Positions 42,636 to 59,652 of a DNA stretch of 64,000 bases are shown here, in pieces (position 1 is the stretch's first letter; each line of letters begins with the position of its first letter). The notes under the pieces were generated by a model, which searched no databases, was not told where the DNA came from, and saw only the letters and a list, made by a program, of their open reading frames with translations. The position numbers were made by a program, and so were the translations under genes. This stretch comes from a phage. The stretch lies in NCBI GenBank assembly GCA_024673055.1, contig GCA_024673055.1_4537.1. One strand, given 5' to 3'.

Positions 42636-42670
42636 AAAAGAAAGGAGCCATTTGGCTCCTTTTCTTATTT
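42636..42670. terminator. bidirectional terminator between convergent gene blocks (A-run, GGAGCC-ATTT-GGCTCC, T-run)
   Basis: Hairpin 42644-42659 flanked by A-rich and T-rich tracts. Confidence 0.6.
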
Positions 42671-45337
42671 ATAATTGGAAGGAATGTTGTTATAATCAGA
42701 AAGTTTTGTGCAATACCTGAATAGGTAACTATTAGCTACTCCGCCTAATGTATTTGTTAATGTTGTTCCTGTTCCTGTAAGATTTGTGCATCCACTAAAG
42801 AAAGAAGATAATGCTCCACGTTTACCACAAACAGTTAACCCTGGGTTGTCATTAAAGATTTTATTAAAATCTGTAAGTGCTAAACAACCTTGGAATGTGG
42901 CTGTTAAAGAGGTCACTTTCGTTGGAATATTATCAAACATTCCTGCTGGAACTTCTGCAAGAGAGGTGCAATCTTTAAAGGTGTAAGAATATCTTGTAAC
43001 TTTTGATAGATTCTTAAATAAATCTGAAGGAATAGATGTTAAAGATGTACAACCTTCAAACGTGCTTGACATTGTTGTCATTGAAGGAAATAAAGCATCA
43101 CTGAATAATCCTTCAGGGATAGCTGTCAAACTTGTGCAGCCAGAGAAGATACCGCTTATAGATGTTCCGGTGTAAGATGTGTTACTAAAACAATCAGAAG
43201 TTATTCGTCTTAAGTTAGCACAACCTTTTAAGAATTGTGAGGCTGGGCTTGTAGAATAACCAATTCTGTTGCCGCCCCATAATTCTAAAAGATCTGGATT
43301 TGCTTCCATAGACACATCAACACTATTCACTACTGAAGCACTTGCAAATTCAATAGCCAGTCTATATTCTCCTGCTGGATAACTATCCACTGTAGAGAAA
43401 GCTTTATTTCTAAATATTACTTTATTTGAAGGTATTACAACGTCATCCACCTTAACTACAAAGTTAGCTGGTGTGACAGTACCCGATAAAATTGGGAACG
43501 TAATTGCCCCATCTGCCGAGTGGTTGAAATATCCGTTTAGAACCGTTAAACTACTACTCGGAGATGGAGCTAACTCCTTTCCCGCAACAGCGTTCACCGT
43601 TAAATAAGAACTATCAGAAGCGGTAACAACACCTTGATATGTAGCTGTGCAACCAATCCTACAACCACCATCACCAACACCAGTTATTACACCAGTTGTA
43701 GGATCTACTGTAGCAACACTAGGATCTGTAGTTGTATACTCAACAACCATACCAGGTAAGCTTGCTGCTCCTGTTGGTGTTATTTCTGCTACCATTGTTT
43801 GTGTTGTTCCTACATCCATCGCAGATAAGCTAGGGGTGTAAACACTCAATGTTGAAGCATACCCTCCAGAGGTATCTGATAAAGTTGTTCCTTCAGCGTT
43901 TAAGGCTGTCATACCTGCATCAAAACCACCTTCTGCATGGAAAGTCATTAAACCAGTAGATGATATTGTCATGTTTGCAGGGGCAGAAGAAGTGTATTTA
44001 ATATTGAAAAGTTTACCTCCTTCTGGGCTAACAGAATGTGTCAACTGTTTAGTTCCACCTACAATACAAATTCCTAAAGAATCTGTAGTTAAGCTAGTTG
44101 CCAGCACATCTCCCGTAATCACAGAGCTTGCTATCGGTGTGAATTTATTATAATTTAGACCACTGTTGAACAGATACGAGGCTTTCCCATCTTTCCAAAT
44201 ACCGGAATAATACATATCCCCGTTATAAACGAAAAAGGTTCCTTGATAACCTAATTGGTTAGTAATATCCATATTCAGCGTATGAACGCTTGTGAGCTTG
44301 TTTATATCCCAGGAACCCACTCCTTCAGGTTTAACTGGTTTTCCCACTTGGAGTGGATCTCCGCTCGCAGAATCATACCCCAAACCTAAGTTTGCAGTGT
44401 AGTTCTTACCAATAGCCCACAAGGAATTATTGATCCCAACGAAAAAAGAGTGGCGGCTTGGTGGAAATTTCCATGTTGAGAAACCTGCTGCAAAGGTGTC
44501 CAGTTTAGTGTAGGTTGTTTCTGTATTAGACCTAACATATAAGTAGTTTACTGTACCCGTGCCGCCGGAGGTATCTCCTACAACTATTGTCTGGGAAACT
44601 GTATTGATGTAATCTTTGACATACACTGTTTCAGTAGTGGATATCGTGGCATTGACAAAAGCGGTTGTTGTGTTATTATTACCTGCTAAACCTTTACTAG
44701 CTCCACAAACACGCAAGGTTCCCACATTGTTGACATAAGAGCATTGGTTGTAACCTGCATCAAAAGCAACTGCTGAACTTGTTATCTGACGAGGAGTAGA
44801 AACTTCGTTAGTAGTGCTTGCACCTAAACTACCTACTGTGTTTTGACCCGATCCATAAAGAACACCACTATTCATTAACCAGAGAGTATTGTTATACCCT
44901 CCTTTAACCTCTTTAAGATTGGCTAAAGAAATAGTCCCTGTTATTACAGATGGAAAGCTGGTCCAAGTAGTTACACATGCATCCGTACCACCTGCTGCTA
45001 TAGATCCTACCAACCCTGCTGTCAATCCTGAATATTGCCATCCCCCACTATTAGTTTTAATAACAAAACAACGATCTGCGGTAAACACATCCGCTACTAC
45101 AGTAGAAGCTAAGTGGAAATTATTGAATCGTGCACTACGAGTTCCATCTGCAATCTCACCAAAGAGGTTTGCGCCTTGAGTAAACAATCTACCATCATTA
45201 AGCAAAATTGCTAAACTACTGTTAGAATTACCAGCGTTATCTGGGTAATCTAAAGTAATTACTTTTTTAACAATACCTGCTGGCAGAGGAACGACACCAG
45301 TACTGGTCATAATAGTAAATATTGGAATTGGAAACAT
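42665..45337 (-). CDS. multidomain tail fibre-like protein: RCC1-like repeats, Ig-like segment, C-terminal BspA-type leucine-rich repeats
   Basis: Repeats FxGCTSLTxIPxxLF, FKDCTSLAEVPAGMF, FQGCLALT, FSGCTNLTG; Gly-rich propeller-like repeats near N-terminus. Confidence 0.6.
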   Translation of the reverse strand: MFPIPIFTIMTSTGVVPLPAGIVKKVITLDYPDNAGNSNSSLAILLNDGRLFTQGANLFGEIADGTRSARFNNFHLASTVVADVFTADRCFVIKTNSGGWQYSGLTAGLVGSIAAGGTDACVTTWTSFPSVITGTISLANLKEVKGGYNNTLWLMNSGVLYGSGQNTVGSLGASTTNEVSTPRQITSSAVAFDAGYNQCSYVNNVGTLRVCGASKGLAGNNNTTTAFVNATISTTETVYVKDYINTVSQTIVVGDTSGGTGTVNYLYVRSNTETTYTKLDTFAAGFSTWKFPPSRHSFFVGINNSLWAIGKNYTANLGLGYDSASGDPLQVGKPVKPEGVGSWDINKLTSVHTLNMDITNQLGYQGTFFVYNGDMYYSGIWKDGKASYLFNSGLNYNKFTPIASSVITGDVLATSLTTDSLGICIVGGTKQLTHSVSPEGGKLFNIKYTSSAPANMTISSTGLMTFHAEGGFDAGMTALNAEGTTLSDTSGGYASTLSVYTPSLSAMDVGTTQTMVAEITPTGAASLPGMVVEYTTTDPSVATVDPTTGVITGVGDGGCRIGCTATYQGVVTASDSSYLTVNAVAGKELAPSPSSSLTVLNGYFNHSADGAITFPILSGTVTPANFVVKVDDVVIPSNKVIFRNKAFSTVDSYPAGEYRLAIEFASASVVNSVDVSMEANPDLLELWGGNRIGYSTSPASQFLKGCANLRRITSDCFSNTSYTGTSISGIFSGCTSLTAIPEGLFSDALFPSMTTMSSTFEGCTSLTSIPSDLFKNLSKVTRYSYTFKDCTSLAEVPAGMFDNIPTKVTSLTATFQGCLALTDFNKIFNDNPGLTVCGKRGALSSFFSGCTNLTGTGTTLTNTLGGVANSYLFRYCTKLSDYNNIPSNYK

Positions 45338-45349
45338 TTAAACCCTCCA

Positions 45350-45375
45350 TAAAAAGAAAGCCCCTTTCGGGGCTT
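45350..45375 (-). terminator. Rho-independent terminator (GCCCC-TTTC-GGGGC) for the collagen-like fibre gene
   Basis: Hairpin followed by T-run on minus strand. Confidence 0.55.
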
Positions 45376-45378
45376 CTG

Positions 45379-47403
45379 TTATCGTGTTACAACAACCATG
45401 TCCACGACATTACCCACACCAGGATACGTTAATTGCAAAATTGTTACTGCGTTAGCAGTAGTTGCTATTTCTGTATCATTCAGTGCTCCATAAGACGCAT
45501 CTAGTGTAACCGTGTGTCCCGTTGTATCTTGAATCAAATAAATCATTGCTGAAAACGCTTTAGGCTTTGTAGAGCCAGTGACACCAGGCCATGCTCCAAC
45601 TGTTAAAGCATCGGTTACTGTAACAACATACATATTGGAAGTTCCAGAAGGAGTCCAAGATGCTCCAGAGTTGGCAGTAGTTGTTTCAAGTTCCATGAAA
45701 CCTGCTGTAACTCTAGTTGGTGTTATAGCTTCCGTAGGATCTGATCCTGATATTTCAATCCAGTTCCCATCAGAACGACCATACGTCAAGCCGTCTTGAG
45801 GTGCTTCTGGTATACTAGGAAGAGTTCCTATAAGTGTCCAAGTAGAAGAATCTGTTTTCTTGAACACTGCTCCAGTGGTAGTATTGAAGGCGTAATCATT
45901 GATAACACCGTCTCCTGCGACTGGATTAGTTGTTGCTACAAACCACTGTGCGCCGTCCTTACCGTTGGTCCCATCAGTACCGTTGGTTCCGTTTGTTCCA
46001 GGATCACCCTTATCTCCTTTATCCCCTTTTTCACCTTTGTCGCCTTTAATACTTCCCATGTCAATAAAAGATGCGGAATTGGTGTCTTGATCGTAGGTAT
46101 AGATGTAAAGATTACTAGTGTCTTCAGTTAAATAGGCATCGCCATAGTTATTATAAACAGGGAGAGCTTCACTGTTCGGAACATGACCTTTAGCTGTAAT
46201 TGATGTTCCTCCAAGACTGCCAACATTCATCCATTCCGTAGCATCTTGAACCCAAACATATAAATCATTATTAATTTTATATGCATCACCCACTTCTCCG
46301 GTAGGAGGAAGTTCAGCTTCACTGTTCAGAACCCCGATAATATCTAAGCCTGATCCTGTTGCACCCACTGGTCCTTGTGGACCTAGTTCACCTTGTGGAC
46401 CTCGCTCTCCTTGATCACCCTTGTCTCCTTTTGGACCTTTAAGTGAGGCAATAAAATCTACTTCTGTCCCTTCATTACCAGCATCCAGCCAACTTTGATA
46501 TGCAGATTTCCCTTCATCTCCATCTGTTCCATCAAGACCGTCTTTACCTGCCTCACCTTGTGGACCTTGAGGACCAACAATATTACCCATGTTGACCCAA
46601 GCTGTCCCATTAGAAACATAAAGATTACCATTGATAGAATAAGCTTGACTTACGTTTTCAGAGTTTGGTTGTGGTAAGTTACTTGTAGAAGGCAAATCCC
46701 CACGATAATCAAAACCGTTGGCGTTAACACCAGGTGCTCCCTGTGGCCCTGTAGGACCAACATCACCTTTATCACCTTTTATAGAGGTAAGAAAATCATA
46801 AACAGATCCTGTATTACCATCTGCCAACCATACCTCGTAAGCTGATTTACCTTCTGGCCCAAGAGAAGAAATAAGTTTCCAAACAGAACCATCCCAAGCG
46901 TAGATTACATCACCTACGATATAACCATCCCCTGCAACGTTACCTGTGGATGGTAGTTCACTAGTGCTTGCTAATGATCCTTTAATATTAAGTTGAGCAC
47001 CAGTATCCCCTTTCAAAGAAGCAAGCCATTGTGCTTCTGTTCCAACAAAACCATTATCAAGCGCGATCTGATAAGCCGATTTACCAGCTTCAGGTATTGT
47101 TTCCGACAGATCATCAATCTGTTGCTGCATTGCCGTAAACTTGGCATTGATAATTGCTATATCATCAGCGGTCCCAACACTTTGCCATGCAAGGGAAGAA
47201 ATACCACCTGTGGTGGCTGGCGTAGAGTTTGCTGGAACAACTTTAGGAAAAGTTCCTTTCCATTGGTAATAATTCCCTTCTGCTGCTAACAGCAAAACTT
47301 CACGGGAATTACGTAATGTAAAACCTGCCTCAAAGCTGCGACGTTTTCGATAAGTAGCTTCTACCAGATCGGCTATCGCACTATTAGGTCTTGTTAAATT
47401 CAT
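45379..47403 (-). CDS. collagen-like tail fibre protein
   Basis: Gly-X-Y runs (GPQGPQGEAGKDGLDGTDG; GDKGEKGDKGDKGDPGTNGTNG); three repeats of GKSAY(Q/E).W...G..G.....(F/W)L.S(L/I)KG; N-terminal W.G.FPK.VPA.STP module. Confidence 0.8.
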   Translation of the reverse strand: MNLTRPNSAIADLVEATYRKRRSFEAGFTLRNSREVLLLAAEGNYYQWKGTFPKVVPANSTPATTGGISSLAWQSVGTADDIAIINAKFTAMQQQIDDLSETIPEAGKSAYQIALDNGFVGTEAQWLASLKGDTGAQLNIKGSLASTSELPSTGNVAGDGYIVGDVIYAWDGSVWKLISSLGPEGKSAYEVWLADGNTGSVYDFLTSIKGDKGDVGPTGPQGAPGVNANGFDYRGDLPSTSNLPQPNSENVSQAYSINGNLYVSNGTAWVNMGNIVGPQGPQGEAGKDGLDGTDGDEGKSAYQSWLDAGNEGTEVDFIASLKGPKGDKGDQGERGPQGELGPQGPVGATGSGLDIIGVLNSEAELPPTGEVGDAYKINNDLYVWVQDATEWMNVGSLGGTSITAKGHVPNSEALPVYNNYGDAYLTEDTSNLYIYTYDQDTNSASFIDMGSIKGDKGEKGDKGDKGDPGTNGTNGTDGTNGKDGAQWFVATTNPVAGDGVINDYAFNTTTGAVFKKTDSSTWTLIGTLPSIPEAPQDGLTYGRSDGNWIEISGSDPTEAITPTRVTAGFMELETTTANSGASWTPSGTSNMYVVTVTDALTVGAWPGVTGSTKPKAFSAMIYLIQDTTGHTVTLDASYGALNDTEIATTANAVTILQLTYPGVGNVVDMVVVTR

Positions 47404-47465: not shown

Positions 47466-50400
47466 TTAGGTTGTTGGCACATCTACTACTGGCGTTGGGC
47501 GAATAACCGCAGTATTACCTACAGAAACATTACTGGAATCATTAGGTATGGTTTTAATTCTAACTCCAGCACTTGTAGGCGTTACAATTGGATCTGCAAT
47601 GTCTATTTTAACTGGGTTAGTCCACGTATCATTATCTTGATAAGGTGCACGAGTAATAACTGTGTCCAAATCTGCTCCACCTACACCAGCGCCAGGAATA
47701 CGGATACGTGTCCCTGCTGACAGAGGGTAATGATACAACCAAGAAGCATTTGTTGCTGTCCCGTTAGGAGTCAAGTTCTGTGTCAGGAAGGTATCTCCTG
47801 CCTGTGTAGCTCGAATACCGAAAGCTGGAATATCTGGAATATATGCCCCACTTGTTGTTACAAGGAAGAACGTATTATCCGCCTTGACTATCATATCACC
47901 TTTGTCAAACTCTTTCCCTGTTGGGAAATGCATTCCATCAATGTTTCGACTAGGATTAGGCTCTAAGTAATAAACTTTGCCCGTTGTCCCTACAATAGCT
48001 CCAATACCACCTGCGATATTGGTATACATATTAGCTTCAACATTACAGTTGACACGATGAATATCCGAGTAACGGCAACGGCTCCACTGTGGACGACCAG
48101 TAACCATCGTCTTGCCATCTGGGTAACAGTTTACGTTAACCATTTCAAGAACAGATTTTTCTCTACGGAAGAATCCATCATAAAATGTCCCTGGACCAGA
48201 TTCAGGTTGACCAACACAATCGAAGATATTACAGGTGATATTAGACATTGAAAGCCAAGAAGCTATACCGAACAACTGCAATGCAGCGCAACGAATATTT
48301 TCAAAGCTAACTCTGTTTTCATAACCTGGCCCAGCGGAAACTCCCGCAAAAACACGCCCAGTTTTGGTGTGAATGTTACGAACAGAATAGTTAAAACATG
48401 GATTTGAAGGTCTGCCCTGTGCCGGAACTACCGGATTACCCTCTTCGTCCAGAACTGCGTTAGTTCCCCACTCCAAATAAATCATACGGATATTACTTGC
48501 AAGTGTGCTACCGTCTGTTTTAGGCTCTCCATAAACACCGTCAATCGTAAAATCTTTACTTCCGTACATTACAACTGCGCCAGTTGCCAAACCTGTCCCA
48601 ACAGATACAGTCTGATCTGGATCGCCATGAATGTTTTCGATAGAGATATTACGACCAACTTCTACGTGGACAATCTGACGACAACGTTTTGCAAAAACGT
48701 TACGAATTGTAATATTCTTGCAATATTGATCATCAGGGATTCCGTAACCATATGGTCCTTTACCAGCTACACCGATACCGATACCCCAGTTGGACAGAGG
48801 AATAGGAGCGTTAGTCCCATCGATATTAGACAGGTAAATATTCTCAATCACACAACCATCGTCATAATGTTTATTGATGACGTTCAGTTCTATTGCATCA
48901 CCTTGCATGTCCATGAAGGTAAGGTTACGGAAGACACCACGTGTTACTGGTTCCCCTGTTCCTTGTTGAAGGATGCCATACAACCCGTTTTTAAAAGTAC
49001 AGTTATCAATTTCAAAAGTACCTGATATTGGGTTGCCTTGGAATACCAAGCTACCAACTTGACCTGCGCGAGGAGCACCGTCCCACAAACAATCGAACAT
49101 GCGCACAGCACCACCCCAATACATAACACGAGAGTTACGGAAAGTTGTGCCTTCTACTGTAGCATTTTGCACACGATAGTCGCGTTGACCACGGAACACA
49201 CCCCCACGCAAAGTGATACCTTGAATATCAAAAGAGCTTGTCGTGAAAGTCATATCGCAACCGTAAGCATCGAGAATCTTGCTTTTCGAAGCTTTTGCTG
49301 CTAACAGTGCCGCTTGGAAAGCTGCTTCTGGTGTGGTATAGGTAGTTGTATTGTTAGCAAATTCGGACAAGTAGACAACATCGAATAAATCGTTGTATGT
49401 TCCACCACGAGGGGTTAACAGTCCTTCTGTATTAGTCAGAACCCATGCATTTGGACCTAATCCTCCGCTCGTCTCCAAGGTATCGGAAGCCAAAATACTT
49501 TTTGGTAAACTTCCAGCCCAACGATAACGACCAGCGCCACGTCCAATCGTCTGATTTTTAGCTGTCAGAGTTACATTATTACCAAAGCTTGTAGGCAAAT
49601 GAACAAACTGTCCACGCTCAACAGCCAGTGCAGAAAGGTCTACAGATCCTCCAGAATAAGTCATTACTCCAGAAATAGACAAGGATGTTAAAGTGCCTGT
49701 AATGTTAGGAGGTAATGTGTAGGAAGACTGCGCTACCGGATCATACAGAGCTTTAATCCCTGTTAACGATTGACCTGCTGTTGCGTAAGCCACCTCATCA
49801 TCTAACAAACCATACTTACGAGCAATAGTTTGCAGAGGGACTTTATCCATGCTTTCTGTTAGTTCTTCCGTTTTTGTTTCTAAACTAACAAGACGGTTCT
49901 CTAGATTAGGATCTGTATCTGCTGAAGCTACGATTTTGCCAATATAAGCAAAAAGTTTGTTTGGCAGTCCTGTTGCAGGATCGTGTCCCAAAGGTTCAGA
50001 TAAGATGATCTTACTATCTTCTATACGGAAAGCTTCCCCCAGAACCTGAATAACACCATTGATCGTAACAATAGCACTATCAAAGATGTAAGGAGGACTA
50101 ATTACTGTTTCATAACCAGTTGCACCAGAATATACCCAAGGGGTGACTTCTGTTGCCAATTGTTCTGTCTTCAGTCCCCACAATACCCAGTTGTTATCTC
50201 CTACTGGAGTCCCTTGCATAGGGATTGGGTTAACCAATGTAGCGTTAGGGGCATAGTAATAACCGCTCAATACTCCATTCTGGAAATAACGAAGTTGGTT
50301 AAAAACTGTTTCGTTTGTGCCTTGCGCCCAATCCAATGGGCTTTTAAAGAAAAAGTTGTCAACAAGGGCTTTTCTCAGGGTTGGTATCAACCCTGATTCT

Positions 50401-50519
50401 GTTTCAATACTCTCTGTAGCACTTCCATTAATAACATCATGGAGTTGGTTAGATGAGAAAATAACCAGGTCTACGCCCTGTTCGAGAGACGTTGCTGGAT
50501 ATGTTGGGAATGTTGCCAT
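47466..50519 (-). CDS. tailspike/tail fibre protein with right-handed beta-helix (pectin-lyase-like) domain
   Basis: Periodic N/G/I/V-rich repeats typical of parallel beta-helix (e.g. NITIRNVFAKRCRQIVHVEVGRNISIENIHG). Confidence 0.7.
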   Translation of the reverse strand: MATFPTYPATSLEQGVDLVIFSSNQLHDVINGSATESIETESGLIPTLRKALVDNFFFKSPLDWAQGTNETVFNQLRYFQNGVLSGYYYAPNATLVNPIPMQGTPVGDNNWVLWGLKTEQLATEVTPWVYSGATGYETVISPPYIFDSAIVTINGVIQVLGEAFRIEDSKIILSEPLGHDPATGLPNKLFAYIGKIVASADTDPNLENRLVSLETKTEELTESMDKVPLQTIARKYGLLDDEVAYATAGQSLTGIKALYDPVAQSSYTLPPNITGTLTSLSISGVMTYSGGSVDLSALAVERGQFVHLPTSFGNNVTLTAKNQTIGRGAGRYRWAGSLPKSILASDTLETSGGLGPNAWVLTNTEGLLTPRGGTYNDLFDVVYLSEFANNTTTYTTPEAAFQAALLAAKASKSKILDAYGCDMTFTTSSFDIQGITLRGGVFRGQRDYRVQNATVEGTTFRNSRVMYWGGAVRMFDCLWDGAPRAGQVGSLVFQGNPISGTFEIDNCTFKNGLYGILQQGTGEPVTRGVFRNLTFMDMQGDAIELNVINKHYDDGCVIENIYLSNIDGTNAPIPLSNWGIGIGVAGKGPYGYGIPDDQYCKNITIRNVFAKRCRQIVHVEVGRNISIENIHGDPDQTVSVGTGLATGAVVMYGSKDFTIDGVYGEPKTDGSTLASNIRMIYLEWGTNAVLDEEGNPVVPAQGRPSNPCFNYSVRNIHTKTGRVFAGVSAGPGYENRVSFENIRCAALQLFGIASWLSMSNITCNIFDCVGQPESGPGTFYDGFFRREKSVLEMVNVNCYPDGKTMVTGRPQWSRCRYSDIHRVNCNVEANMYTNIAGGIGAIVGTTGKVYYLEPNPSRNIDGMHFPTGKEFDKGDMIVKADNTFFLVTTSGAYIPDIPAFGIRATQAGDTFLTQNLTPNGTATNASWLYHYPLSAGTRIRIPGAGVGGADLDTVITRAPYQDNDTWTNPVKIDIADPIVTPTSAGVRIKTIPNDSSNVSVGNTAVIRPTPVVDVPTT

Positions 50520-51413: not shown

Positions 51414-52475
51414 TTAGCCTCCAATATCGTACCAGTTTCCGTTAACGTTGCGCTGGAGGCGTTTGAAGTAAACCCCACCGATGTTATCCGCAGAGCTACG
51501 TCCTGTTTCCTGTACGATAATACCAGAAAGAACATAACCAGAAGAACAGATATAAGTCCAAGAAACTTCGTTCCCTGGTGGATAATACACACCTTGGCTA
51601 GTATAACGAATATCTCTTACAAAGGTTCCGTTAGCATAATTGTAGTTATTTGTAATCTGATTTTGATGATTACTTTCTACATTGTTTATACGGGAAGAGA
51701 GGTTGCTGTTAACACTATTCAGGTTGTTTTGAACAGTGTTAATATTCGTCTGCAATGTGTTCTGAAGAGAAGTCAAACGAGAATTCAGATAATCTAAGCG
51801 AACTAAAGCGTTTCCGTTAGAAGTATCTTGTCCACTGTTTGATCTTGGACTGTCTATTAGAACATAACCTGCATCATATAAACGAACACCTGCCGATACA
51901 TTACCTGTGCTAGGATTTCTACGATAGATGTAAAGCTGACCTCCGCTTTGATACTCGGCAGAAATCTCACCATTTGTTTGTCCTGCGAAGTTTTTGAAGA
52001 ACAGTGTTGCAGGATCTGTTGTGGAAGTACCGTTAACATAAACATCGCCACCATAAATAGCACCACCCGCATCACGTTTTACCAGCACGTTTGGTGTTAC
52101 TGTTGAACTAGTGGCATCTGTAATGTTTGCCGACAAGTGATTATGACTGTTATCTTGAACCTGGATAGATAAAGTAACTTCTTTGTTACCGTTCCAAGTA
52201 GCCTCACCAGTAGCATCACCTGCCATTGTAATCTTAGTTCCCACTAAAGGCAAGTAAGTATCAGGTAAAGTTGGAAGAAAGTCATCCACCAAATAGCGAA
52301 TCCATAAACCGATATTATTAAGAATCCAGTTCATTTCTTCGCAAGTCATGATTTGACCATAATCCATACCAACTGTGCGGATGGTTTCTTTAGGTCTAAT
52401 TTTGTTTGTGTTTAAAGTTCCTGGGAGCGTTACAGTTTGTGTAGCCCAGTCAGGATAATATATTGGCTTCGCCAT
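51414..52475 (-). CDS. tail fibre protein
   Basis: Asn/Ser/Thr-rich repeats (NTLQTNINTVQNNLNSVNSNLSSRINNVESN) and C-terminal globular tip. Confidence 0.6.
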   Translation of the reverse strand: MAKPIYYPDWATQTVTLPGTLNTNKIRPKETIRTVGMDYGQIMTCEEMNWILNNIGLWIRYLVDDFLPTLPDTYLPLVGTKITMAGDATGEATWNGNKEVTLSIQVQDNSHNHLSANITDATSSTVTPNVLVKRDAGGAIYGGDVYVNGTSTTDPATLFFKNFAGQTNGEISAEYQSGGQLYIYRRNPSTGNVSAGVRLYDAGYVLIDSPRSNSGQDTSNGNALVRLDYLNSRLTSLQNTLQTNINTVQNNLNSVNSNLSSRINNVESNHQNQITNNYNYANGTFVRDIRYTSQGVYYPPGNEVSWTYICSSGYVLSGIIVQETGRSSADNIGGVYFKRLQRNVNGNWYDIGG

Positions 52476-52484: not shown

Positions 52485-53114
52485 TTAATCTATTTGCTTG
52501 AGAAGCGTACACATGCGTCCTGTTTCATCCCCAGTAGATTCCATGTACAGGGAACCTAAACCACCAATACCATGAGGCGGTTTGGTAGCATAATAAGAAC
52601 TAAAACCAAAAGCTGATCCTGCTTTTGCTCCAAGACGGTAGCTACTAATAATAGGGAAAACACTTAGCAACTGCTCTAAAGCTTGATCAGATTGAAGACA
52701 CAGGTTGTAGAAAAACACATCAAAGGTTTTATTCAAACCTACGTAAGTATTAAGCGTTTCACGTTCTGTTCCTGTGAAACGGGCGAAGATATCAATTATG
52801 TCACCACGAGTCCCCGATGAGGCTACGCGGTAAGCCCTGATTTTTAATATTGTTCTATACTCTTCATCATCAGAGCCATTACGTTCGATCCCCATTTCTT
52901 CCCCTAGAATATCTAGGTATTTGCCTGTGGCTGTAGAGATCAAGCGGTGTTTAGCAAGATAGATCATTGCCTGATCTATCTTTTGCTTTTCACTGGATAC
53001 GATGTAGAGGAGCTTGACAATGTTAGGAGAAGATTTAAAATCTTCAATCAGAAGGTTTTTAACGTCTTCATTGATACTGGCCCAAGTTGTTACATGGTCA
53101 ACACTCACTGCCAT
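52485..53114 (-). CDS. baseplate-associated protein (209 aa)
   Basis: Position between J-like and tail fibre genes. Confidence 0.45.
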   Translation of the reverse strand: MAVSVDHVTTWASINEDVKNLLIEDFKSSPNIVKLLYIVSSEKQKIDQAMIYLAKHRLISTATGKYLDILGEEMGIERNGSDDEEYRTILKIRAYRVASSGTRGDIIDIFARFTGTERETLNTYVGLNKTFDVFFYNLCLQSDQALEQLLSVFPIISSYRLGAKAGSAFGFSSYYATKPPHGIGGLGSLYMESTGDETGRMCTLLKQID

Positions 53115-53116
53115 TT

Positions 53117-54604
53117 TTACACTCCATACTCGTAAGAAATGTTATCAAGGTCAAAAGAAGGGACAACATTATAAGCAGGAACTATATTATTCTCTGTATA
53201 TTTACTGTCATCCTCAGTATTAAGTTTAACATAAACACGAAGAGAAGTCAAGCGTCCAAAAGCAAGTGCTGCATAAATAACACCTTTGATTTGATCGTTC
53301 GTTACTGAAGAACCTAATTCAAAGTAAGCTTGCAGGTTTTGTAAAGCTTCTACGATGTTTTGTTTTTCTGTTCCACTTAAAGTTGTTCCGTTGACAGTTT
53401 GATAAACAAGTTTTACAGAATACATAGCAGAAGCACCAGGAGAGAAGCGAATAATTTCTTGTCCTCCATCTTCTGTTGTAACTGTTATGTTAGTTGTTCC
53501 GTGTGTCAAAGTGTTGATTGGTTTGGTTTTATAGATAACATTTGCAATTTCTTCTGCACTGCCACCATAAACTATGGTCTGGAAAGTCATAGCTGGAGCA
53601 TGTTCTTGATCGTGTAATGTGGGGTTATCGTAGATTTTCACTTTGGTAACACCATCTGTAAGCAGTAGTGCTTTCACAATAGCTGCTCGTGTCCCCGCAT
53701 TAGCTTCATCAACGTTGTCATTGAAACGAGAGCGGAATTCTGCGTCTGTCTCAACATCCCGACCAGGAGAAAATGAATAAAAGTTACCACTGTCAAGATA
53801 ACCTGTAAAGGTAGAAGATATCCCTGTAATAGACTCCACACCAACAGGATTGTATCCTTTCTCTGCTGCAACTACTGGAATTTCACTCCATTTGGTTCCA
53901 ACTGGAACACTGGCATAAAATTTGATAGGAGTTACTAGTCCCACTGGAGTATCGCTGGTTAAAGAAGTAAAACCAATTGATAAGTTACCTGAATCAGAAA
54001 ATACAAGACTACGATCAGCTTCTGTTAAATTCGCCTTGATAAAAGTTTCAAGATCGGCTATAAATGTAGAAGAACCAGGTGCAAGTGTTTTACTGTTTAA
54101 TCCTCCGTCTACCGCACTTTGTGCATAAAAAGTAATATTTGGAACACCTGTAGCAGTTGCATTAGCACGAGAGATTTGATAAGCTGCAATCTTAGCATTC
54201 AACATAGTTGGTGTGCTAACATAGTAGTTCATATCACTGTCAGAGTTGAAGTAAATATCCGTGCCTAGTTCATAAGTCCAAGCTGCTTTGTTATTACTCT
54301 TAACATATGCATAACCTGTACTTGCTGCTGCACCTGCTCGATAGAAACCGCGTTTAGAAAAGATTTCATCAAGATAAATACCTTCTGCACCATCCAGTGT
54401 TTGAGTATTATAAACACCTTGCATACCTTCCCACAATGTGTAATCTGTGTATGCAATTATTCTAAACAGTTGTCCGATCACAGTATCTTCCGAAGTGGCT
54501 GCATCTGCACCAAATGTGTTTTTTACTGCTGTCATGTAGTTGTTTAAAACATCGTCAAAAGTCGGGATTACAAATCCCGCATCTGTCAAACCATATTCGT
54601 CCAT
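53117..54604 (-). CDS. baseplate wedge protein (J/gp6-like), tentative
   Basis: Size, position and general resemblance to baseplate J-like proteins. Confidence 0.45.
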   Translation of the reverse strand: MDEYGLTDAGFVIPTFDDVLNNYMTAVKNTFGADAATSEDTVIGQLFRIIAYTDYTLWEGMQGVYNTQTLDGAEGIYLDEIFSKRGFYRAGAAASTGYAYVKSNNKAAWTYELGTDIYFNSDSDMNYYVSTPTMLNAKIAAYQISRANATATGVPNITFYAQSAVDGGLNSKTLAPGSSTFIADLETFIKANLTEADRSLVFSDSGNLSIGFTSLTSDTPVGLVTPIKFYASVPVGTKWSEIPVVAAEKGYNPVGVESITGISSTFTGYLDSGNFYSFSPGRDVETDAEFRSRFNDNVDEANAGTRAAIVKALLLTDGVTKVKIYDNPTLHDQEHAPAMTFQTIVYGGSAEEIANVIYKTKPINTLTHGTTNITVTTEDGGQEIIRFSPGASAMYSVKLVYQTVNGTTLSGTEKQNIVEALQNLQAYFELGSSVTNDQIKGVIYAALAFGRLTSLRVYVKLNTEDDSKYTENNIVPAYNVVPSFDLDNISYEYGV

Positions 54605-54846
54605 TAGTCATCCTCTTTGGTAGATTGTGATCTGCCCCAGCGTAAATCAATAAGATTTTTCATGAGGCGAGAAGGAGTTATCATGAAAACAAAAGCCCAA
54701 CCCATCCATTCAGGAATTTCTTTTTCTATTCCTAAAAAGATAAACATGCCTGTCATAACCGACATGCCTACAGCGTTCCAGACTTTCGTAGAACTGACTT
54801 TATTATCAGGATATGTACAGAACATACCTATTAAAAATTTTCTCAT
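54604..54846 (-). CDS. small membrane protein (2 TM)
   Basis: Hydrophobic segments; start overlaps upstream stop. Confidence 0.45.
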   Translation of the reverse strand: MRKFLIGMFCTYPDNKVSSTKVWNAVGMSVMTGMFIFLGIEKEIPEWMGWAFVFMITPSRLMKNLIDLRWGRSQSTKEDD

Positions 54847-55151
54847 AGTGCGTTCCCATTACTTTTTAAATCACGAGATACAGCTAATTCCCCAAGGTCT
54901 ACAGAACCCGCTGAATGCACAAGTACAGCAGCACTAAGACTAATGGCAGTAATACCTGAGGCAATATCAGCAGGTAGGGAATACGCCCTTTGCGTCTCCT
55001 TATCATAGATAACCTTATACCCACCCAAATCCACACCAACTGAGAAGTAAACAACCTCAGATTGTTTGACTCCAAAGTAACGGGCTACTGCTTGTTTATT
55101 GGTTAAGATTCCGGTTGAACCTTTACCACCTTGGGAGAACATTTCGTTCAC
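54843..55151 (-). CDS. hypothetical protein (102 aa)
   Basis: ORF downstream of 240-bp non-coding gap. Confidence 0.45.
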   Translation of the reverse strand: MNEMFSQGGKGSTGILTNKQAVARYFGVKQSEVVYFSVGVDLGGYKVIYDKETQRAYSLPADIASGITAISLSAAVLVHSAGSVDLGELAVSRDLKSNGNAL

Positions 55152-55390: not shown

Positions 55391-57490
55391 TTACATACTG
55401 CTTATGAACTCAAGCTCGTAAAGCTGAACACGGTCTGTTGTGATATTTGCCTCAAAGTACGTTCCATCGTAGCTAGCAAGTTTCACATCATTTATATGCC
55501 CAGCATAGGCATCATCATACATAAAAATAACCTGACCTGTTCCTTTACCTACATACTTACACGTCCAGGTTCCTAGGGTTGTAGTGTTATTCGCCAGAGC
55601 GATTGTTGTCTCTACACCGCCTGTAGCGATAACTCCATATGCAGTGTTAGCTACATATTTAATACCAAAGTAGTTACCTGACGCGACAGAGCCACAAACC
55701 AGATAACCCGCTAAGGCTGTGACACCTGATGGTATGGCAAATGCCACTGCAAATCCAAGGTAGTTAGAGTTCTCAAACTGCCTTACCAAACGACGCTCTC
55801 GCTTATATCTCTGGATTGCAGTACCCCCAGCAGTACCAGCTCGAACAACTAAGCCACCTTCTACATAGTATTCGATACCAGATCCAGTACCGGTTACAGT
55901 ATTGGTGAACTTGTCATAATCCTGAAATTGCGTATGGTGGCGGGTGGTATCTAGTCTGAAAGAGGATGTCACACCGTTGATGGATTTGGTGGCTGTTTCT
56001 ATAATGACTCCAGCCTGTACACCATCAACCCGTGATTGTGCCACTTTACCTATTGCCATACCAAGGTCATTAGCGATTATTGTCCCGCCGATAGCCACTG
56101 CTACCCACGATTTGAGCACACCAGACATAGGAGCTAAAGCACTACCAATGCGAGTGGAGTTTGACATGATGGTCCCACCATGTTTAACCACCATACCCTT
56201 GTCATTTATATCTGTCCCAAAATCACAACCTTCAACACTGATAGTAGAGTTATATGCCTCTATACACTTGTCGACTCCAACACCATTGAAAGAGCATTTA
56301 TTAACGGCCCCGCTAGTGCAACCGTAAAATTCAACTGAACAATTCTCGTCGCTGTGGGTTCGATTGGTAAAGTTCAGGTTTTCTAAGTTAGGTGAGTAAG
56401 GCGTACCACCGCAAGAAAATACTTGTGCAGATCTGTAACTTACTTTTGTGCGGTCTTTGGATTTACTGGTAATAACCAAAATAGCCTGTTGACCGGACTC
56501 AGGCGGGAAGTTTGGAGTACACCCTCGTTTATTACGAATCACAAGGTCTTCATCGTAGGTTCCATCGGAAACCTGAATAGTAATAAATTGCCAGTAGTTG
56601 TCCGGCACCGCGTCAATGGCGGCCTGCATAGTAGGGTAGTCCTCTGGCACGTTTACCGTAACGTTGTAGGTGTAGACGCCAGGGACGGTAGAGGAATCAA
56701 CCCCGTATTGTTTGATATAGTTACGATACGGATCACCCCCGCCAATTGAGTTGATAAAACCCTCAATGCGAACTTTATTTGTTGTTGAGTATATATATCC
56801 GTTTTCACCTACATCTACGCGGAAAAGACGCGGGATTGTCAAATCCTCTTTAATCTCAACAGGGACATTAATGTAAACGCGACCACGACCACTTGCTATA
56901 GCTCGCTTTAATGCCTGAGTATAGTCTGGAGCGATGGGATCGCCGTCTCTAACGTAAGCACGAATGTCATCGTTAACTTCATCTCGCCCACCTATAAGGG
57001 TGAATCCTTTGCTGCTAGTTAATTCGTTTCGCAATGAAGCATTACCAACACTAACCCATGCACCTGTTCCAACACCACCTGTTGATGTAGGGGTTGAGTC
57101 AGCGGGAACAGCTTTAGGGAAAGCACCATCCCATGTATAGCACTGTCCACCAGCAATGTGCCAAACAGCATCGGTTGAACTATTGGCTGTCGCCCCTTCT
57201 TCAAAGCTACCATCAACAAGAGTTAACCCAGCCTCGGCAAGACTACGACACCACTGTTCACGATCATTAAGAAGATTGTTATTCAACTCTTCCTGAACAG
57301 TATTACCATTTGAGGATTGTATTAAATCTGCTCCATCTGTATCTTTCAACTGGGTGGCTAAAACCACCCCAGTGTCAGTAAGAAATTTGGAAACTGTGCT
57401 TTTAACAGTCTTATCAGGTTGGTCTAAAACCAGGTAATCAGAATCATTAACTTTTGATGTTTCGGGTAAATTAGTAATTGTAGTTGACAT
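55391..57490 (-). CDS. tailspike protein with beta-helix domain
   Basis: Shares the W.G.FPK.VPA.STP..TGG module with the collagen-like fibre; N/G-rich beta-helix-like repeats. Confidence 0.7.
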   Translation of the reverse strand: MSTTITNLPETSKVNDSDYLVLDQPDKTVKSTVSKFLTDTGVVLATQLKDTDGADLIQSSNGNTVQEELNNNLLNDREQWCRSLAEAGLTLVDGSFEEGATANSSTDAVWHIAGGQCYTWDGAFPKAVPADSTPTSTGGVGTGAWVSVGNASLRNELTSSKGFTLIGGRDEVNDDIRAYVRDGDPIAPDYTQALKRAIASGRGRVYINVPVEIKEDLTIPRLFRVDVGENGYIYSTTNKVRIEGFINSIGGGDPYRNYIKQYGVDSSTVPGVYTYNVTVNVPEDYPTMQAAIDAVPDNYWQFITIQVSDGTYDEDLVIRNKRGCTPNFPPESGQQAILVITSKSKDRTKVSYRSAQVFSCGGTPYSPNLENLNFTNRTHSDENCSVEFYGCTSGAVNKCSFNGVGVDKCIEAYNSTISVEGCDFGTDINDKGMVVKHGGTIMSNSTRIGSALAPMSGVLKSWVAVAIGGTIIANDLGMAIGKVAQSRVDGVQAGVIIETATKSINGVTSSFRLDTTRHHTQFQDYDKFTNTVTGTGSGIEYYVEGGLVVRAGTAGGTAIQRYKRERRLVRQFENSNYLGFAVAFAIPSGVTALAGYLVCGSVASGNYFGIKYVANTAYGVIATGGVETTIALANNTTTLGTWTCKYVGKGTGQVIFMYDDAYAGHINDVKLASYDGTYFEANITTDRVQLYELEFISSM

Positions 57491-57498
57491 TTTTACTC

Positions 57499-59652
57499 CT
57501 ATATATAAAATTTTTGTGTTGTTACTAAATCTTCTCCAGATTTAGTAGCTAATGTAATTCCACTTATGGTAGCAATCTCAACATTTGCTTGTTTAAGAGT
57601 GATATCTTGCAAATAACAATTCAAAGGCACATTACCCATATAGAAAACTTGGGATTGAGAATTAACTACCGTGATAGAATCGTGCATTATTTGAGGATAG
57701 GCCCATATATATTGTGTAAGTCCATTGAACTTATTGGCGTTCAACACTATGTTACCTATAATCATTTTCCAAAGATACGTGCGGTAGTTTGATTCAGGAT
57801 CAAAGCCATACAAAGGTGCAAGAGTAGCATCTGGAACAAAACCTGCAAGATAGTGAATATCAGAATATTCAAAACCTAATTTTTCATGTGGTATGGTAAT
57901 TGCATCAAATGCTTTCATCATTTTACCTTCCAGAAGCCAGTCGTAACACTCCGAACAGTAAAAATCAAAAGCTTCAGGAATGTAGTAATCAGACGGAAAG
58001 TTAACTTTCTCCATCAATCCGTTGCCAATAATTGATGGTAAGAATGGAAGCAATGTTACTTTAGCTCCTGGATAAGTTGCTCTGGTGTCTGTTGCAAACT
58101 TTGTAACTCTTAACCCTAGTTTACGAGACAAAAATGCATAGTATTCGTCAAATGGTGTTCCTGTTTTATAATTATCTATTGTTCCTGCATCTTGTGCAAA
58201 TAAGCCTGTTTCTGTATTGAATGCCAGTTTGGTAGTGTAATCATATATACAAGGCATTTTACTTGCTGTATTATACCACCACCAAGGTTCACCAATTTGA
58301 ATTACGACTGGAATATTGTTAGCTTGAGAAATAGATGCTATTTTGTTAATAACATTTTGCAAATATTCCATGCCTTCGTCAATAGTTGGAGACAACACGT
58401 AACTAGGAGGCTTATACCCTGTTGCTGCAAGAGCATCGTTCCAATCATGCTGGACCCATTCAACAGGACAAACTGTGCTCATCAACTCAAAACTTAAAGA
58501 GTTCATTATTGTGTAACCCTTCTCGTTCGCTATAGAATGGAAACTATTTAGCCAAGCTTCTGTAGCTGGATTCAGGAAGACAGATCTATTTAAAGCCCAA
58601 GATGTTCCGTTCCATGAGAACTCATAATAGTGAGACATTCCGTTGTAATGGTTAATCATTCCACGATAACCTAGTGCATATGTATTATAAATAACTCTCT
58701 CTGGAGTCAGGTTATACATATCATCATAAGATGTGCACATGCGAATATCATGTTCAGGCTGGACAAGGTTGCTGACTTTCATCATACTGTAACCAGAAGT
58801 AGGTTCAAGAAGAGTGAAAGTAAACCAAGCCTCTTGACTGGCAATAGGTACAATCTCTTCTATTTCTTCATACCTTGCTGTAATCAAAGAGAAGAAAATA
58901 TTATCTACAGCACTCATATCCAAAGGAATATCATTATTAGGGCCAGAAAAGATATTACCAAAATCTAACTTTATTGTGGCTGTTTTACCATCTTCTGAAA
59001 TATCTGAAGCGTAGAATCCTAAACTGACATAATGAACACTTTTATCCAGGAGAGTTACAGTCAAAGTCGGCACCAAAGGTTCTTCTTTAAAACCTGGCAT
59101 GTTTTGACTAATTTCCATTTTAAACCAAAGTTTCTCTGAACTTAAATCTGTGTGAGGCAAATACCCAACACCTTTATGGTCATATTTGTCAACTGTACTC
59201 CAGATAACCCCTGCCAAACCTGCTGTTGTTCTGTTTACAAATCTTGCAGTAAAAGAGTCTCCATGAGATACAATAGAACAACTTTCCGTTGCTTGAGAAT
59301 CTATTGTCCAATACATAGGAGAGAACATTTTAACGTCTTTTGTAGTCCAAGTTATTGGAGTAGTATTTTCTTGGATAGTAGTTATAATACAATTGATGGT
59401 TGTTTCAACCATCATGTTATTTTGACTAATCCCTGAAACTTGGAGGGAGAAGTTAAGATCTATTGAGTTCTTTGGTCGTTCAAATACTTCAACCACAATA
59501 GTAGCAGAATCAGCATCATCAGGGAACACAAGTGTTCCCGATTTTGCAATATAATCTCTACCAGCGACTGCTGTTCCGTCAACAGTCGTGTAGTTAAATG
59601 AACTCGCATTTACTCTCTTGTCTCGCGTGACAGTAAATATAGCTTGTTTCAT
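57499..59652 (-). CDS. virion-associated protein with N-terminal Calx-beta-like domain and large putative carbohydrate-active domain
   Basis: YTTVDGTAVAGRDYIAKSGTLVFPDDADSATIVVEVFERP matches Calx-beta pattern. Confidence 0.6.
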   Translation of the reverse strand: MKQAIFTVTRDKRVNASSFNYTTVDGTAVAGRDYIAKSGTLVFPDDADSATIVVEVFERPKNSIDLNFSLQVSGISQNNMMVETTINCIITTIQENTTPITWTTKDVKMFSPMYWTIDSQATESCSIVSHGDSFTARFVNRTTAGLAGVIWSTVDKYDHKGVGYLPHTDLSSEKLWFKMEISQNMPGFKEEPLVPTLTVTLLDKSVHYVSLGFYASDISEDGKTATIKLDFGNIFSGPNNDIPLDMSAVDNIFFSLITARYEEIEEIVPIASQEAWFTFTLLEPTSGYSMMKVSNLVQPEHDIRMCTSYDDMYNLTPERVIYNTYALGYRGMINHYNGMSHYYEFSWNGTSWALNRSVFLNPATEAWLNSFHSIANEKGYTIMNSLSFELMSTVCPVEWVQHDWNDALAATGYKPPSYVLSPTIDEGMEYLQNVINKIASISQANNIPVVIQIGEPWWWYNTASKMPCIYDYTTKLAFNTETGLFAQDAGTIDNYKTGTPFDEYYAFLSRKLGLRVTKFATDTRATYPGAKVTLLPFLPSIIGNGLMEKVNFPSDYYIPEAFDFYCSECYDWLLEGKMMKAFDAITIPHEKLGFEYSDIHYLAGFVPDATLAPLYGFDPESNYRTYLWKMIIGNIVLNANKFNGLTQYIWAYPQIMHDSITVVNSQSQVFYMGNVPLNCYLQDITLKQANVEIATISGITLATKSGEDLVTTQKFYI

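Follow-up and report, generated by a model that had tools for sequence, protein, structure and literature searches.

The window analysed here, a 64,000-nucleotide stretch of phage DNA, very probably carries a known collinear multi-fibre locus, in which proximal anchors are specific to each slot, distal parts have been exchanged, and the small D2 domain acts as a junction between the two. The window belongs to a Phapecoctavirus (a phAPEC8/ESCO5-like E. coli myophage), with the block showing 96–98% DNA identity over 85–90% of its length to ESCO5, TSP7_1, tuntematon, and other Phapecoctavirus genomes. It is collinear gene for gene with the phi92 gp139–gp151 locus, with gene order and lengths in agreement and conserved parts showing 60–93% pairwise identity, and this homology identifies the block as the phage's locus for the baseplate periphery and receptor binding. 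Schwarzer et al. reportedly described a multivalent adsorption apparatus of several co-expressed fibres and depolymerases in phi92 in 2012. Phages of the phi92/phAPEC8 type, which fall in the Stephanstirmvirinae, phi92 itself being a Justusliebigvirus, have been published under the terms "multivalent adsorption apparatus" and "nanosized Swiss army knife" (PMC8594841, PMC13450770), with several distinct fibre sets shown together on the phi92 virion by cryo-EM (PMC13450770). The original prediction of a large arsenal of receptor-binding proteins matches this published apparatus and is borne out, with p890 and p717 as candidate members. The multi-fibre locus is an already well-known system, the only unusual item being the rare allele of the tailspike p699. 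The ORFs were confirmed at the following positions, all on the minus strand.

42665..45337, minus strand: p890, RCC1-like beta-propeller, Big_2, and C-terminal LRR-like repeats (Pfam RCC1/WD40_RLD and Big_2; phrog_11922, tail protein)
42665..43585, minus strand: variable C-terminal ~306 residues of p890 (LRR-like tip), a second allelic swap site (survey of phage records)
45379..47403, minus strand: p674, collagen-like fibre, orthologue of phi92 gp151 (full-length identity, Pfam Collagen)
47173..47370, minus strand: p674 residues 12–77, D2 / Tail_spike_N at the extreme N-terminus (PF18668)
47466..50519, minus strand: p1017, colanidase-type tailspike, counterpart of phi92 gp150 with an added D1–D2 head (PDB 6e0v)
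49437..49616, minus strand: p1017 residues 302–361, third D2 / Tail_spike_N copy (PF18668)
49617..49835, minus strand: p1017 residues 229–301, D1 head domain (CBA120/G7C heads)
49920..50156, minus strand: p1017 residues 122–200, small beta domain, XD (T4 gp10)-like, acidic with pI 4.55 (Foldseek)
50160..50519, minus strand: p1017 residues 1–120, putative baseplate anchor of the phiTE long-tail-fibre type (PDB profile, Foldseek)
50868..51413, minus strand: p181, tail fibre assembly chaperone, counterpart of phi92 gp148 (Caudo_TAP, synteny)
51414..52475, minus strand: p353, short Asn-rich fibre, orthologue of phi92 gp147 (identity to gp147)
52485..54604, minus strand: p209 and p495, baseplate wedge proteins, phi92 gp146 and gp145, the fibre-carrying platform (Pfam Baseplate_J, DUF2612, synteny)
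54843..55151, minus strand: p102, truncated 5' fragment (N-terminus and D1) of a Kuttervirus TSP1-type tailspike gene (DNA identity)
55391..57490, minus strand: p699, tailspike in the slot of phi92 endosialidase gp143 (synteny, slot survey)
55394..57040, minus strand: p699 residues 150–699, rare beta-helix body and lectin/CBM-like C-terminal domain (homologues, AF2 model, Foldseek)
57044..57214, minus strand: p699 residues 93–149, D2 / Tail_spike_N, acidic with pI 4.05 (PF18668)
57329..57490, minus strand: p699 residues 1–54, slot-specific conserved N-terminal peptide (identity to phi92 gp143)
57499..59652, minus strand: p717, Calx-beta, NCTSP_N, and TIM barrel, counterpart of phi92 gp142 (Pfam, PDB)
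59661..63010, minus strand: p958, counterpart of phi92 gp141, and p157, counterpart of phi92 gp140 (PHROG tail protein / tail fibre families, synteny)

The motif W.G.FPK.VPA.STP..TGG, originally noted as an N-terminal module shared by p674 and p699, corresponds to Pfam PF18668 (Tail_spike_N), the D2 "head" domain of the CBA120/G7C tailspike family. Against a curated gathering score of 25 bits, PF18668 reaches 70.5 bits (E 1.3e-19) at residues 12–77 of p674, 78.5 bits (E 4e-22) at residues 93–149 of p699, and 37.6 bits (E 2.3e-9) at residues 302–361 of p1017, and when all six frames of the window were scanned with the profile, exactly these three copies emerged. The sharing between p674 and p699 is real and far beyond chance (BLASTP 51% identity over 57 residues, E 1.5e-11), however the count of two carriers has to be raised by the copy in p1017, and only in p674 does the module lie at the true N-terminus, beginning at residue 93 in p699 and residue 302 in p1017. 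A shared fold is supported by homology of D2 to the solved structures 4oj5, 5w6f, 5w6h, 4qnl, and 8x8m, with residues 91–169 of p699 aligning to residues 99–174 of 4oj5 (E 7.5e-15) and also matching 5w6h, 5w6f, and 8x8m, and with the D2 region of the AF2 model of p699 having a pLDDT of about 73–86.

Whilst the fold is shared, it is highly improbable that the module is the common attachment domain originally proposed, by which all carriers would bind the same virion site with specificity swapped behind it. In CBA120, TSP1 and TSP3 do attach to XD domains through their D1–D2 heads (PMC8825819), the module is N-terminal in p674 and gp151 and conserved across genera, and the breakpoint of p699 relative to EF1-1 and SKA64 falls just after D2; against these observations stand phi92 gp150 and gp143, which occupy the same slots and share the N-termini of p1017 and p699 but lack PF18668, and D2 is for this reason not considered the anchor in either protein. 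The internal position of the module in p1017 and p699 argues in the same direction, as does CBA120 TSP4, in which the D1–D2 pair is likewise internal and is not the anchor (PMC8825819). Furthermore, the three copies differ strongly in charge, with pI values of 9.7 (p674), 4.05 (p699), and 10.3 (p1017), which argues against a single binding partner.

Under the favoured slot-specific arrangement, every fibre or spike gene would pair a conserved proximal segment, characteristic of the slot it occupies, with a distal segment for recognising or degrading a host glycan, the distal segments being exchanged through horizontal transfer. D2 would link the attachment region to the neck and beta-helix as a small trimeric module, acting mainly as a portable junction, with recombination at its edges joining new bodies to resident anchors. 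From the domain identities, homologies, synteny, and breakpoints observed, we infer which surface binds what, as well as every substrate named below. The conserved upstream segments are, by homology, the putative anchors: the attachment elements would be residues 1–54 of p699, residues 1–120 of p1017 followed by the XD-like domain, and, in p674, the D2 head itself, the sole place where D2 plausibly serves as a docking surface.

The slot occupied by p699 provides the clearest view of this exchange. Residues 1–54 of p699 are 93% identical to residues 1–54 of phi92 gp143, with no similarity beyond that point, and gp143 and the ESCO5 endosialidase share residues 1–54 or 1–50 of p699 but not PF18668; on this conservation the peptide is likely the true attachment element. 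DNA homology of p699 with ESCO5, phAPEC8, and Justusliebigvirus extends only to about residue 50, and homology with EF1-1 ends at the 3' edge of D2 (window position 57047, residue 148), placing the breakpoints of the slot at about residue 50 and about residues 148–153. In a survey of all phage records, alignment ends at p699 cluster at query positions 361 and 655–671. The slot in relatives holds an endosialidase or other spikes, with alleles of 452–921 residues, or is empty, as in ESCO13-type phages. The D2 domain of p699 may nevertheless help attachment, as it stays with the anchor in the comparison with EF1-1 and SKA64.

Beyond D2, the distal 550 residues of p699 have no megablast match among 50,697 phage records, which sets p699 apart from the remainder of the locus, with p674, p1017, p353, p717, and p958 the same in phAPEC8, ESCO5, EF1-1, dw-ec, and other Phapecoctavirus genomes, and p890 present in about half of the records. 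The best tblastn match to the body is a partial CBA6 record (54.6% identity), and residues ~170–699 are 54–73% identical to the beta-helix body and C-terminal domain of P22-like prophage tailspikes, which differ in carrying the podovirus adaptor Head_binding (PF09008) in another virion context. The body shared by the homologues begins at about residues 150–175, with PF18668 found in 10 and the P22 head-binding PF09008 in 6 of the 21 homologues. The occurrence of the same body on either head domain, together with the breakpoints of the slot, bears out the prediction of swapped distal specificity domains.

The AF2 model of p699 (pLDDT 72) is strand-rich over residues 200–490 and 515–699, with the top Foldseek matches being CBA120 TSP4, TSP2, TSP3, and TSP1, K2-2 TSP, and the P1 tailspike (E 5e-11 to 1e-6), Klebsiella and Acinetobacter tailspikes also among the top matches, and the C-terminal domain matching lectins and CBMs. 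The body is thus modelled as a right-handed beta-helix followed by a C-terminal beta-sandwich, in keeping with the earlier label of beta-helix tailspike. Similarity to Pectinesterase is sub-threshold (19 bits against a cutoff of 27), and whilst seen in 16 of the 21 homologues, may reflect just the beta-helix fold. As the body is also found on P22-like prophage tailspikes, the target of p699 is probably O-antigen or capsule.

Several further features of this slot were assessed. A common N-terminal peptide in p699 and p157, suggested by resemblance to the eye, was rejected, with BLASTP returning no alignment even at E 100. The pN/pS value for residues 1–148 of p699 was discarded, as several alleles are non-homologous after residue 50 and had been compared unaligned. 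Terminator and promoter counts in the gap between p699 and p102 are no higher than in shuffled sequence, and the coding strand shows no U-tract at the hairpin that follows the p699 stop.

p1017 (phrog_6117, 939 bits) agrees with the second beta-helix tailspike label, with residues 426–1000 homologous to the solved phi92 colanidase gp150 (PDB 6e0v, E 1.4e-79). On this homology p1017 is a colanic-acid depolymerase homologue, with colanic acid its presumed substrate. Residues 1–200 are 75% identical to gp150, compared with only 33% for the body, and gp150 has neither D1–D2 nor PF18668, such that p1017 differs from its phi92 counterpart by an inserted D1–D2 head. This head (residues 226–364) matches those of CBA120 TSP1, TSP3, and TSP4 and G7C gp63.1 with E values of 1e-26 to 1e-30, and its D1 domain is 43% identical to p102.

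The N-terminus of p1017 resembles the anchor of the long tail fibre (LTF) of phiTE (Vequintavirinae; PDB 9cuy and 9mjn) over about residues 13–121, with a profile search against the PDB matching residues 16–126 to 9cuy_g (E 4.4e-31) and the predicted model matching 9cuy_h and 9cuy_i by Foldseek (E 4e-9 and 1.6e-8, RMSD 2.0 Å). The N-terminus of the phiTE LTF is attached to wedge 2A and the sheath initiator (PMC11972413). For the small beta domain at residues 122–200, profile matches were obtained to the tandem N-terminal domains of the K1 depolymerase 9k4a. The N-terminal model has a pLDDT of 71 and was built from only 8 sequences, a large-database search with residues 1–228 having returned only 7 homologues, hence the thin alignment under it. 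This model also matches 7rej_A (CBA120 TSP4-N335) with E 4.7e-3, probability 1.00, RMSD 1.6 Å, and 29% identity over 72 columns, a single weak XD-like match that we infer to fall on residues 122–200, with T4 gp10 (5iv5) reaching just E 0.34. From the model, residues 122–200 are a candidate docking platform.

The adjacent gene product p674 is 60% identical to phi92 gp151 over its full length, with a Pfam Collagen match of 45.3 bits, and PF18668 is likewise present at residues 11–77 of gp151. Residues 1–80 of p674 are basic (pI 9.7), and the C-terminal residues 560–671 match the phiTE fibre chain 9cuy_g. By analogy with CBA120 TSP1 and TSP3 (PMC8825819), the D2 domain of p674 could act as a docking head.

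These features allow for p1017 to be a hub like CBA120 TSP4, comprising an anchor, an XD-like domain, D1, D2, and a beta-helix, with the basic D2 of p674 docked on the acidic XD-like domain to give one branched fibre, an arrangement we regard as unlikely. The phiTE-LTF-type N-terminus of p1017 would then attach it to the wedge and sheath initiator. In the branched complexes of CBA120 (Kuttervirus) and G7C (Gamaleyavirus), D1–D2 heads dock on T4 gp10-like XD domains of a partner (PMC8825819), and homologous D1 and D2 domains are present here, with the domain order of p1017 paralleling that of TSP4. The match to TSP4-N335 is consistent with this arrangement, however its E value is weak. The charges of the proposed partners are complementary (pI 9.7 and 4.55), as for the TSP1 head and TSP4 XD3 (PMC8825819), and their genes are adjacent; p674, however, has D2 but no D1, a difference from the CBA120/G7C heads that also applies to p699. 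The phiTE LTF joins a p1017-like N-terminus and a p674-like C-terminus in one chain, although this single 793-residue fibre has no depolymerase body, the two parts here being split over two proteins. Fibre II of phi92, which lacks an assigned gene, attaches at the base of another fibre (PMC13450770), but AlphaFold3 models of phi92 gp150 and gp151 failed to match the density of fibre II (PMC13450770). CBA120 and G7C also differ in phage family and baseplate. Only one XD-like domain is weakly detected here, and the complex is hypothetical in this phage. If true, the branched hub would assign genes to a phi92/phAPEC8-type fibre that two cryo-EM studies left without one.

No intact protein in the window is a tailspike starting with a D1–D2 head, with p674 starting with D2 alone, p699 having a 92-residue leader before D2, and the only ORF starting with D1 being the truncated p102. 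The DNA of p102 is 84–87% identical to CBA120 orf210 and relatives, and its product matches residues 1–95 of many tailspike PHROGs; this identity to the 5' end of TSP1-type genes shows direct genetic exchange with CBA120/G7C-type phages. p102 is probably a recombination relic. Its pN/pS of 0.72 compares with 0.07 and 0.14 in the flanking genes, with 14 polymorphic codons amino-acid-changing and 7 silent, and speaks against p102 functioning in the fibre complex as a small adaptor or cap protein, a role for which there is only a slim chance. Such a role would fit the retention of the full 309-nt length in at least eight genomes of two genera beside different spike alleles, however the very low pS (0.028) means that this intactness may simply reflect recent spread. 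The ORF is preceded by an RBS of its own and overlaps the next gene downstream by ATGA, and CBA120 TSP2 also bears a D1-only head (PMC8825819), but this window alone has a start codon changed to GTG, ECGD1, UAB_1, and alia retain an ORF of just 150 nt, and the ORF is absent from ESCO5, phi92, and ESCO13.

Most of the remaining domain labels of the original prediction hold in Pfam, including collagen in p674, Caudo_TAP in p181 beside the p353 fibre, and Calx-beta in p717. The exception is the BspA-LRR label of p890, which is weakly supported, the only matches being DUF285 with an E value of 0.018 (15.2 bits, cutoff 25) and the designed LRR protein 4psj (E 6e-6); C-terminal repeats are visible by eye in the sequence, and the firm domains are the RCC1-like propeller and Big_2. 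The full p890 gene is matched by 34 of 68 phage records, with the others stopping at query position 1814 (residue ~584). By synteny p890 has no phi92 counterpart, and by length only it corresponds to the "TfpM1" type (890/891 residues), which is absent from phi92-like phages (PMC12695924). Most of p717 consists of NCTSP_N and a TIM barrel related to gp64 and gp65 of coliphage N4 (E 2.8e-30 and 1.8e-12 against the PDB), which serve there as sheath subunits (PMC13434306).

p353 is 75% identical to phi92 gp147 over residues 1–271, with an unrelated tip, and gp147 forms fibre III of phi92, bound to the wedge protein gp145 (PMC13450770), which, like gp146, belongs to the phi92 wedge (PMC13450770). 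The p181 gene lies directly downstream of p353, and its product matches Caudo_TAP at 50.4 bits (E 3.2e-13) against a gathering score of 22.1; by homology, p353 and p181 are the short fibre III and its chaperone. Two further fibre-type genes of the same locus, p958 (59661-62537) and p157 (62537-63010), lie just outside the range originally described, and by length only match the published "TfpL" and "TfpS3" respectively (PMC12695924). Pfam searches with p958, p157, p102, and residues 1–230 of p1017 gave no useful domain, gp10/XD included, at E values up to 5.

The locus thus shares with phi92 its collinear order and the concept of several fibres and depolymerases, with the short fibre, the gp151-type fibre, the gp150 N-terminus, and the 54-residue peptide of the variable spike all conserved at the identities given above. 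It differs in that the variable slot holds a D2 and beta-helix spike here and an endosialidase in phi92, and in the addition of the 890-residue RCC1/Big_2/LRR-like protein and the D1 relic ORF.

For the host range of the phage, the suggestion that specificity is switchable within one genome is not borne out, with no long inverted repeats and no invertible segment present. An invertible segment, shufflon, or repeat cassette was sought and rejected, as no inverted repeat at a useful spacing exceeds 24 nt, and direct repeats are limited to echoes of the collagen repeats and of D1/D2. Switching occurs between genomes by recombination, not inside one genome. A broad host range may reasonably be expected by analogy with phi92, and work on the BASEL collection suggests that many of these fibres target conserved glycans (PMC8594841).

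For this phage group and its neighbours, the literature already describes an arsenal of multiple fibres, anchors that stay conserved within a genus, and distal domains that are swapped horizontally, and the scientific addition made here is small, comprising three modest points of practical value. The distal body of p699 is a rare specificity module in a therapeutic-type E. coli myophage, common to P22-like prophages, and is a natural candidate for serogroup assignment. Additionally, the nested breakpoints at about residues 50 and 150, together with the empty-slot variants, define grafting sites for tailspike bodies in phAPEC8-type phages. Finally, the gp150-type N-terminus corresponds to the fibre anchor of phiTE, for which a structure has been solved, and this offers a testable clue to the gene behind each fibre, a question that the literature explicitly describes as unsettled.

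The fibre and spike genes of the block (ORFs named here by their length in amino acids) form one series, all on the minus strand, whose order is collinear with gp139–gp151 of phage phi92. Their ORFs lie at the coordinates given in the original prediction, whose observation holds with corrections: it was right about an arsenal of receptor-binding proteins and about the swapping of distal domains, and wrong in taking the shared module for a common anchor.

Features of the block and their phi92 counterparts
p208: gp139, sheath initiator in phi92
p157: gp140, putative fibre protein in phi92
p958: gp141, no phi92 role given
p717, 57499-59652, minus strand: gp142, no phi92 role given
p699 slot, between p717 and p80: gp143, endosialidase in phi92
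p80: gp144, annotated membrane protein in phi92
p495 and p209: gp145 and gp146, wedge in phi92
p353: gp147, fibre III in phi92
p181: gp148, fibre assembly chaperone in phi92
p111: gp149, annotated lipoprotein in phi92
p1017: gp150, colanidase in phi92
p674: gp151, putative fibre protein in phi92
p102, 54843-55151, minus strand: truncated 5' end of a Kuttervirus TSP1-type tailspike gene

A counterpart of p890 is absent from phi92. By length, p958, p890, p674 (approximately), p353, and p157 match the 958, 890, 681, 353, and 157 aa types of the Stephanstirmvirinae fibre-gene catalogue (PMC12695924). The block DNA is 96–98% identical to that of many deposited Phapecoctavirus genomes, over 85–90% of its length only, among them EF1-1, dw-ec, ESCO5, TSP7_1, tuntematon, and phAPEC8. 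Counterparts of p717 in relatives are annotated 'non-contractile tail sheath', and p717 is homologous to both sheath subunits of coliphage N4, gp64 (E = 2.8e-30) and the receptor-binding gp65 (E = 1.8e-12). At window ~42600-42665 replication-type genes on the plus strand meet the convergently transcribed structural block on the minus strand, and the sign of the GC skew flips there too; the last plus-strand gene before it encodes a 310-aa protein, whose EF1-1 counterpart carries the annotation single-stranded DNA-binding protein.

The motif W.G.FPK.VPA.STP..TGG, read in the original prediction as the common attachment module of two fibre/spike proteins with swapped distal specificity, is the core of Pfam family PF18668 (Tail_spike_N). 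Both proteins, p674 (residues 12–77) and p699 (residues 93–149), match this family far over the curated threshold, as does p1017 (residues 302–361), a third carrier that had been missed; searching every reading frame of the window with a profile of all three gave no fourth copy. In alignments the module covers residues ~99–174 of CBA120 TSP1 and the equivalent stretches of TSP3, TSP4, and G7C gp63.1, which form D2 in the D1-D2 "head"; in p1017 a D1 domain (residues 229–301) lies ahead of D2. For the CBA120 complex, the TSP1 head on its own was found to bind TSP4 at domain XD3, and TSP3 needs its head to be incorporated; TSP4 too has the D1-D2 pair, but in an internal position, its anchor being a separate N-terminal domain (PMC8825819).

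Comparison with relatives argues against a common anchor in two of the three carriers, p1017 and p699. Residues 1–200 of p1017 are 75% identical to phi92 gp150, which has no PF18668 match and runs into its body without any D1-D2, while residues 1–54 of p699 are 93% identical to the phi92 endosialidase gp143, with no similarity beyond, and PF18668 is absent from both gp143 and the ESCO5 endosialidase. As these N-termini are shared with proteins lacking D2, the slot-conserved elements sit upstream of it. Only in p674/gp151 is D2 found at the extreme N-terminus, where it is conserved in both genera. The three D2 copies differ strongly in charge (pI 9.7, 4.05, and 10.3), and judged by the sequence comparisons D2 behaves as a junction, or head, module.

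The swapping of distal domains is real, and is mapped in the p699 slot, where alleles span 452–921 aa. Compared with EF1-1, DNA homology ends at window 57047 (p699 residue 148, the end of D2) and restarts at 55309, downstream of the p699 stop codon; compared with ESCO5, it ends at 57340 (residue 50) and restarts at 54841. Among all phage records, these ends cluster at residue ~50 (ESCO5, phAPEC8, nepoznato, Justusliebigvirus alia, and VEcB) and at residues ~148–153 (SKA64, KKP 3954, and JLBYU50). No tailspike gene separates the p717 and p80 homologues in ESCO13 (locus L013, 1500-1900), Schickermooser, BI-EHEC, and Mt1B1_P17, and the spike is therefore dispensable for the virion. In some slot alleles extra small ORFs separate the spike gene from the p102 homologue, as in vB_Ec-G1 (147 aa; L006, 2175-2618) and tuntematon (52 and 90 aa; L008, 1910-2342); these could be chaperones or further remnants.

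The body of p699 (residues 150–699) has no megablast-level match in any deposited phage, its best protein-level match being a partial CBA6 record (54.6% identity). Two contigs carry the identical 699-aa protein, one of 151 kb deposited as E. coli and one of 144 kb from Logan (run SRR13871286). Among 21 homologues in a large protein collection, a body of this type (54–94% identity) is joined to a PF18668 head in 10 and to the P22 head-binding domain PF09008 in six, with the common region beginning at residue ~150–175. The p699 model (pLDDT 72) matches beta-helix tailspikes of CBA120, Klebsiella, and Acinetobacter phages, with a C-terminal domain predicted to be lectin- or CBM-like. Between p699 and p102 lie 239 nt (55152-55390) with two GC-rich hairpins, one (CCCCGCTTCGGCGGGG) 14 nt past the p699 stop codon, within the swapped cassette 55310-55390, and the other (AAGCCCCTC...GAGGGGCTT) directly upstream of the p102 RBS.

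The p102 product equals the first ~94 residues of TSP1-type tailspikes, comprising the N-terminus and D1, and in DNA it shares 84–87% identity with the 5' ends of CBA120 orf210 and many Kuttervirus/Gamaleyavirus-type genes. The end of the ORF overlaps p80 in an ATGA, at the very point where ESCO5 homology restarts, and its 309-nt length is kept in eight genomes of both genera. Its evolution is close to neutral, with a pN/pS of 0.72 (14 amino-acid-changing and seven silent polymorphic codons), against 0.07 and 0.14 for the genes on either side. This value, a pS of 0.028 where those genes have ~0.17, a GTG start seen in the window only, and a length of just 150 nt in three genomes speak for a young relic of recombination whose constraint is relaxed. 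Such a relic would document gene flow between Ackermannviridae-type tailspikes and the p699 slot.

Judged by sequence, p890 is a second swap site. Its LRR-like C-terminal third (residues ~585–890; 42665-43585, minus strand) occurs in 34 of 68 phage records, with the remainder diverging sharply after residue 584, just beyond Big_2, such that residues 1–584 alone are common; this suggests that p890, too, binds receptors and that its tip can be exchanged. Similarly, the short fibre p353 shares 75% identity with phi92 gp147 over residues 1–271, with an unrelated C-terminal ~80 residues (~272–353; 51414-51662, minus strand) that look like another distal-tip replacement. A search of 42–64 kb for long inverted repeats and cassette repeats found none; variation therefore lies between genomes and not inside one, contrary to the proposed switchable host range.

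The N-terminus of p1017 offers a lead on fibre assignment. Residues 1–228 match a phiTE fibre chain, 9cuy_g (residues 16–126), by profile (E = 4.4e-31), and the AF2 model of this region (pLDDT 71), in which one helix precedes and another follows a globular domain and a small beta domain, superposes on phiTE baseplate chains at 2.0 Å. Judged from its modelled residues, 9cuy_g is taken as the long tail fibre of phiTE. It joins within a single chain an N-terminal anchor like that of p1017 and a C-terminal domain like that of p674, whereas in the phAPEC8-like window phage these parts lie on separate adjacent genes (50160-50519 and 45379-45730). PF26208 and PF27114 are listed for the gp150-type N-terminus in precomputed annotations of homologues of residues 1–228 (P0027-P0033), and a curated family for this anchor may already exist; the local Pfam copy gave no match in this region. 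A ~72-residue segment of p1017 also matches CBA120 TSP4-N335 (E = 4.7e-3, probability 1.00, RMSD 1.6 Å, 29% identity), and is assigned to the small beta domain (residues 125–194), the match output not giving the aligned residues. With this assignment, p1017 follows the order of TSP4, namely anchor, XD-like domain, D1, D2, neck, and beta-helix. This layout, together with the acidic XD-like domain of p1017 (pI 4.55) and the basic head of p674 (pI 9.7), hints that p674 may dock on p1017. A 2026 cryo-EM study of phi92 left fibre II without an assignment, and neither the gp150 nor the gp151 predicted model agreed with its density (PMC13450770).

The arsenal, its swapping, and tailspike modularity are already published, both for phi92/phAPEC8-type phages and generally. 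Three things are new here: one rare tailspike allele, p699; the mapping of a graft site; and a clue for assigning genes to fibres.
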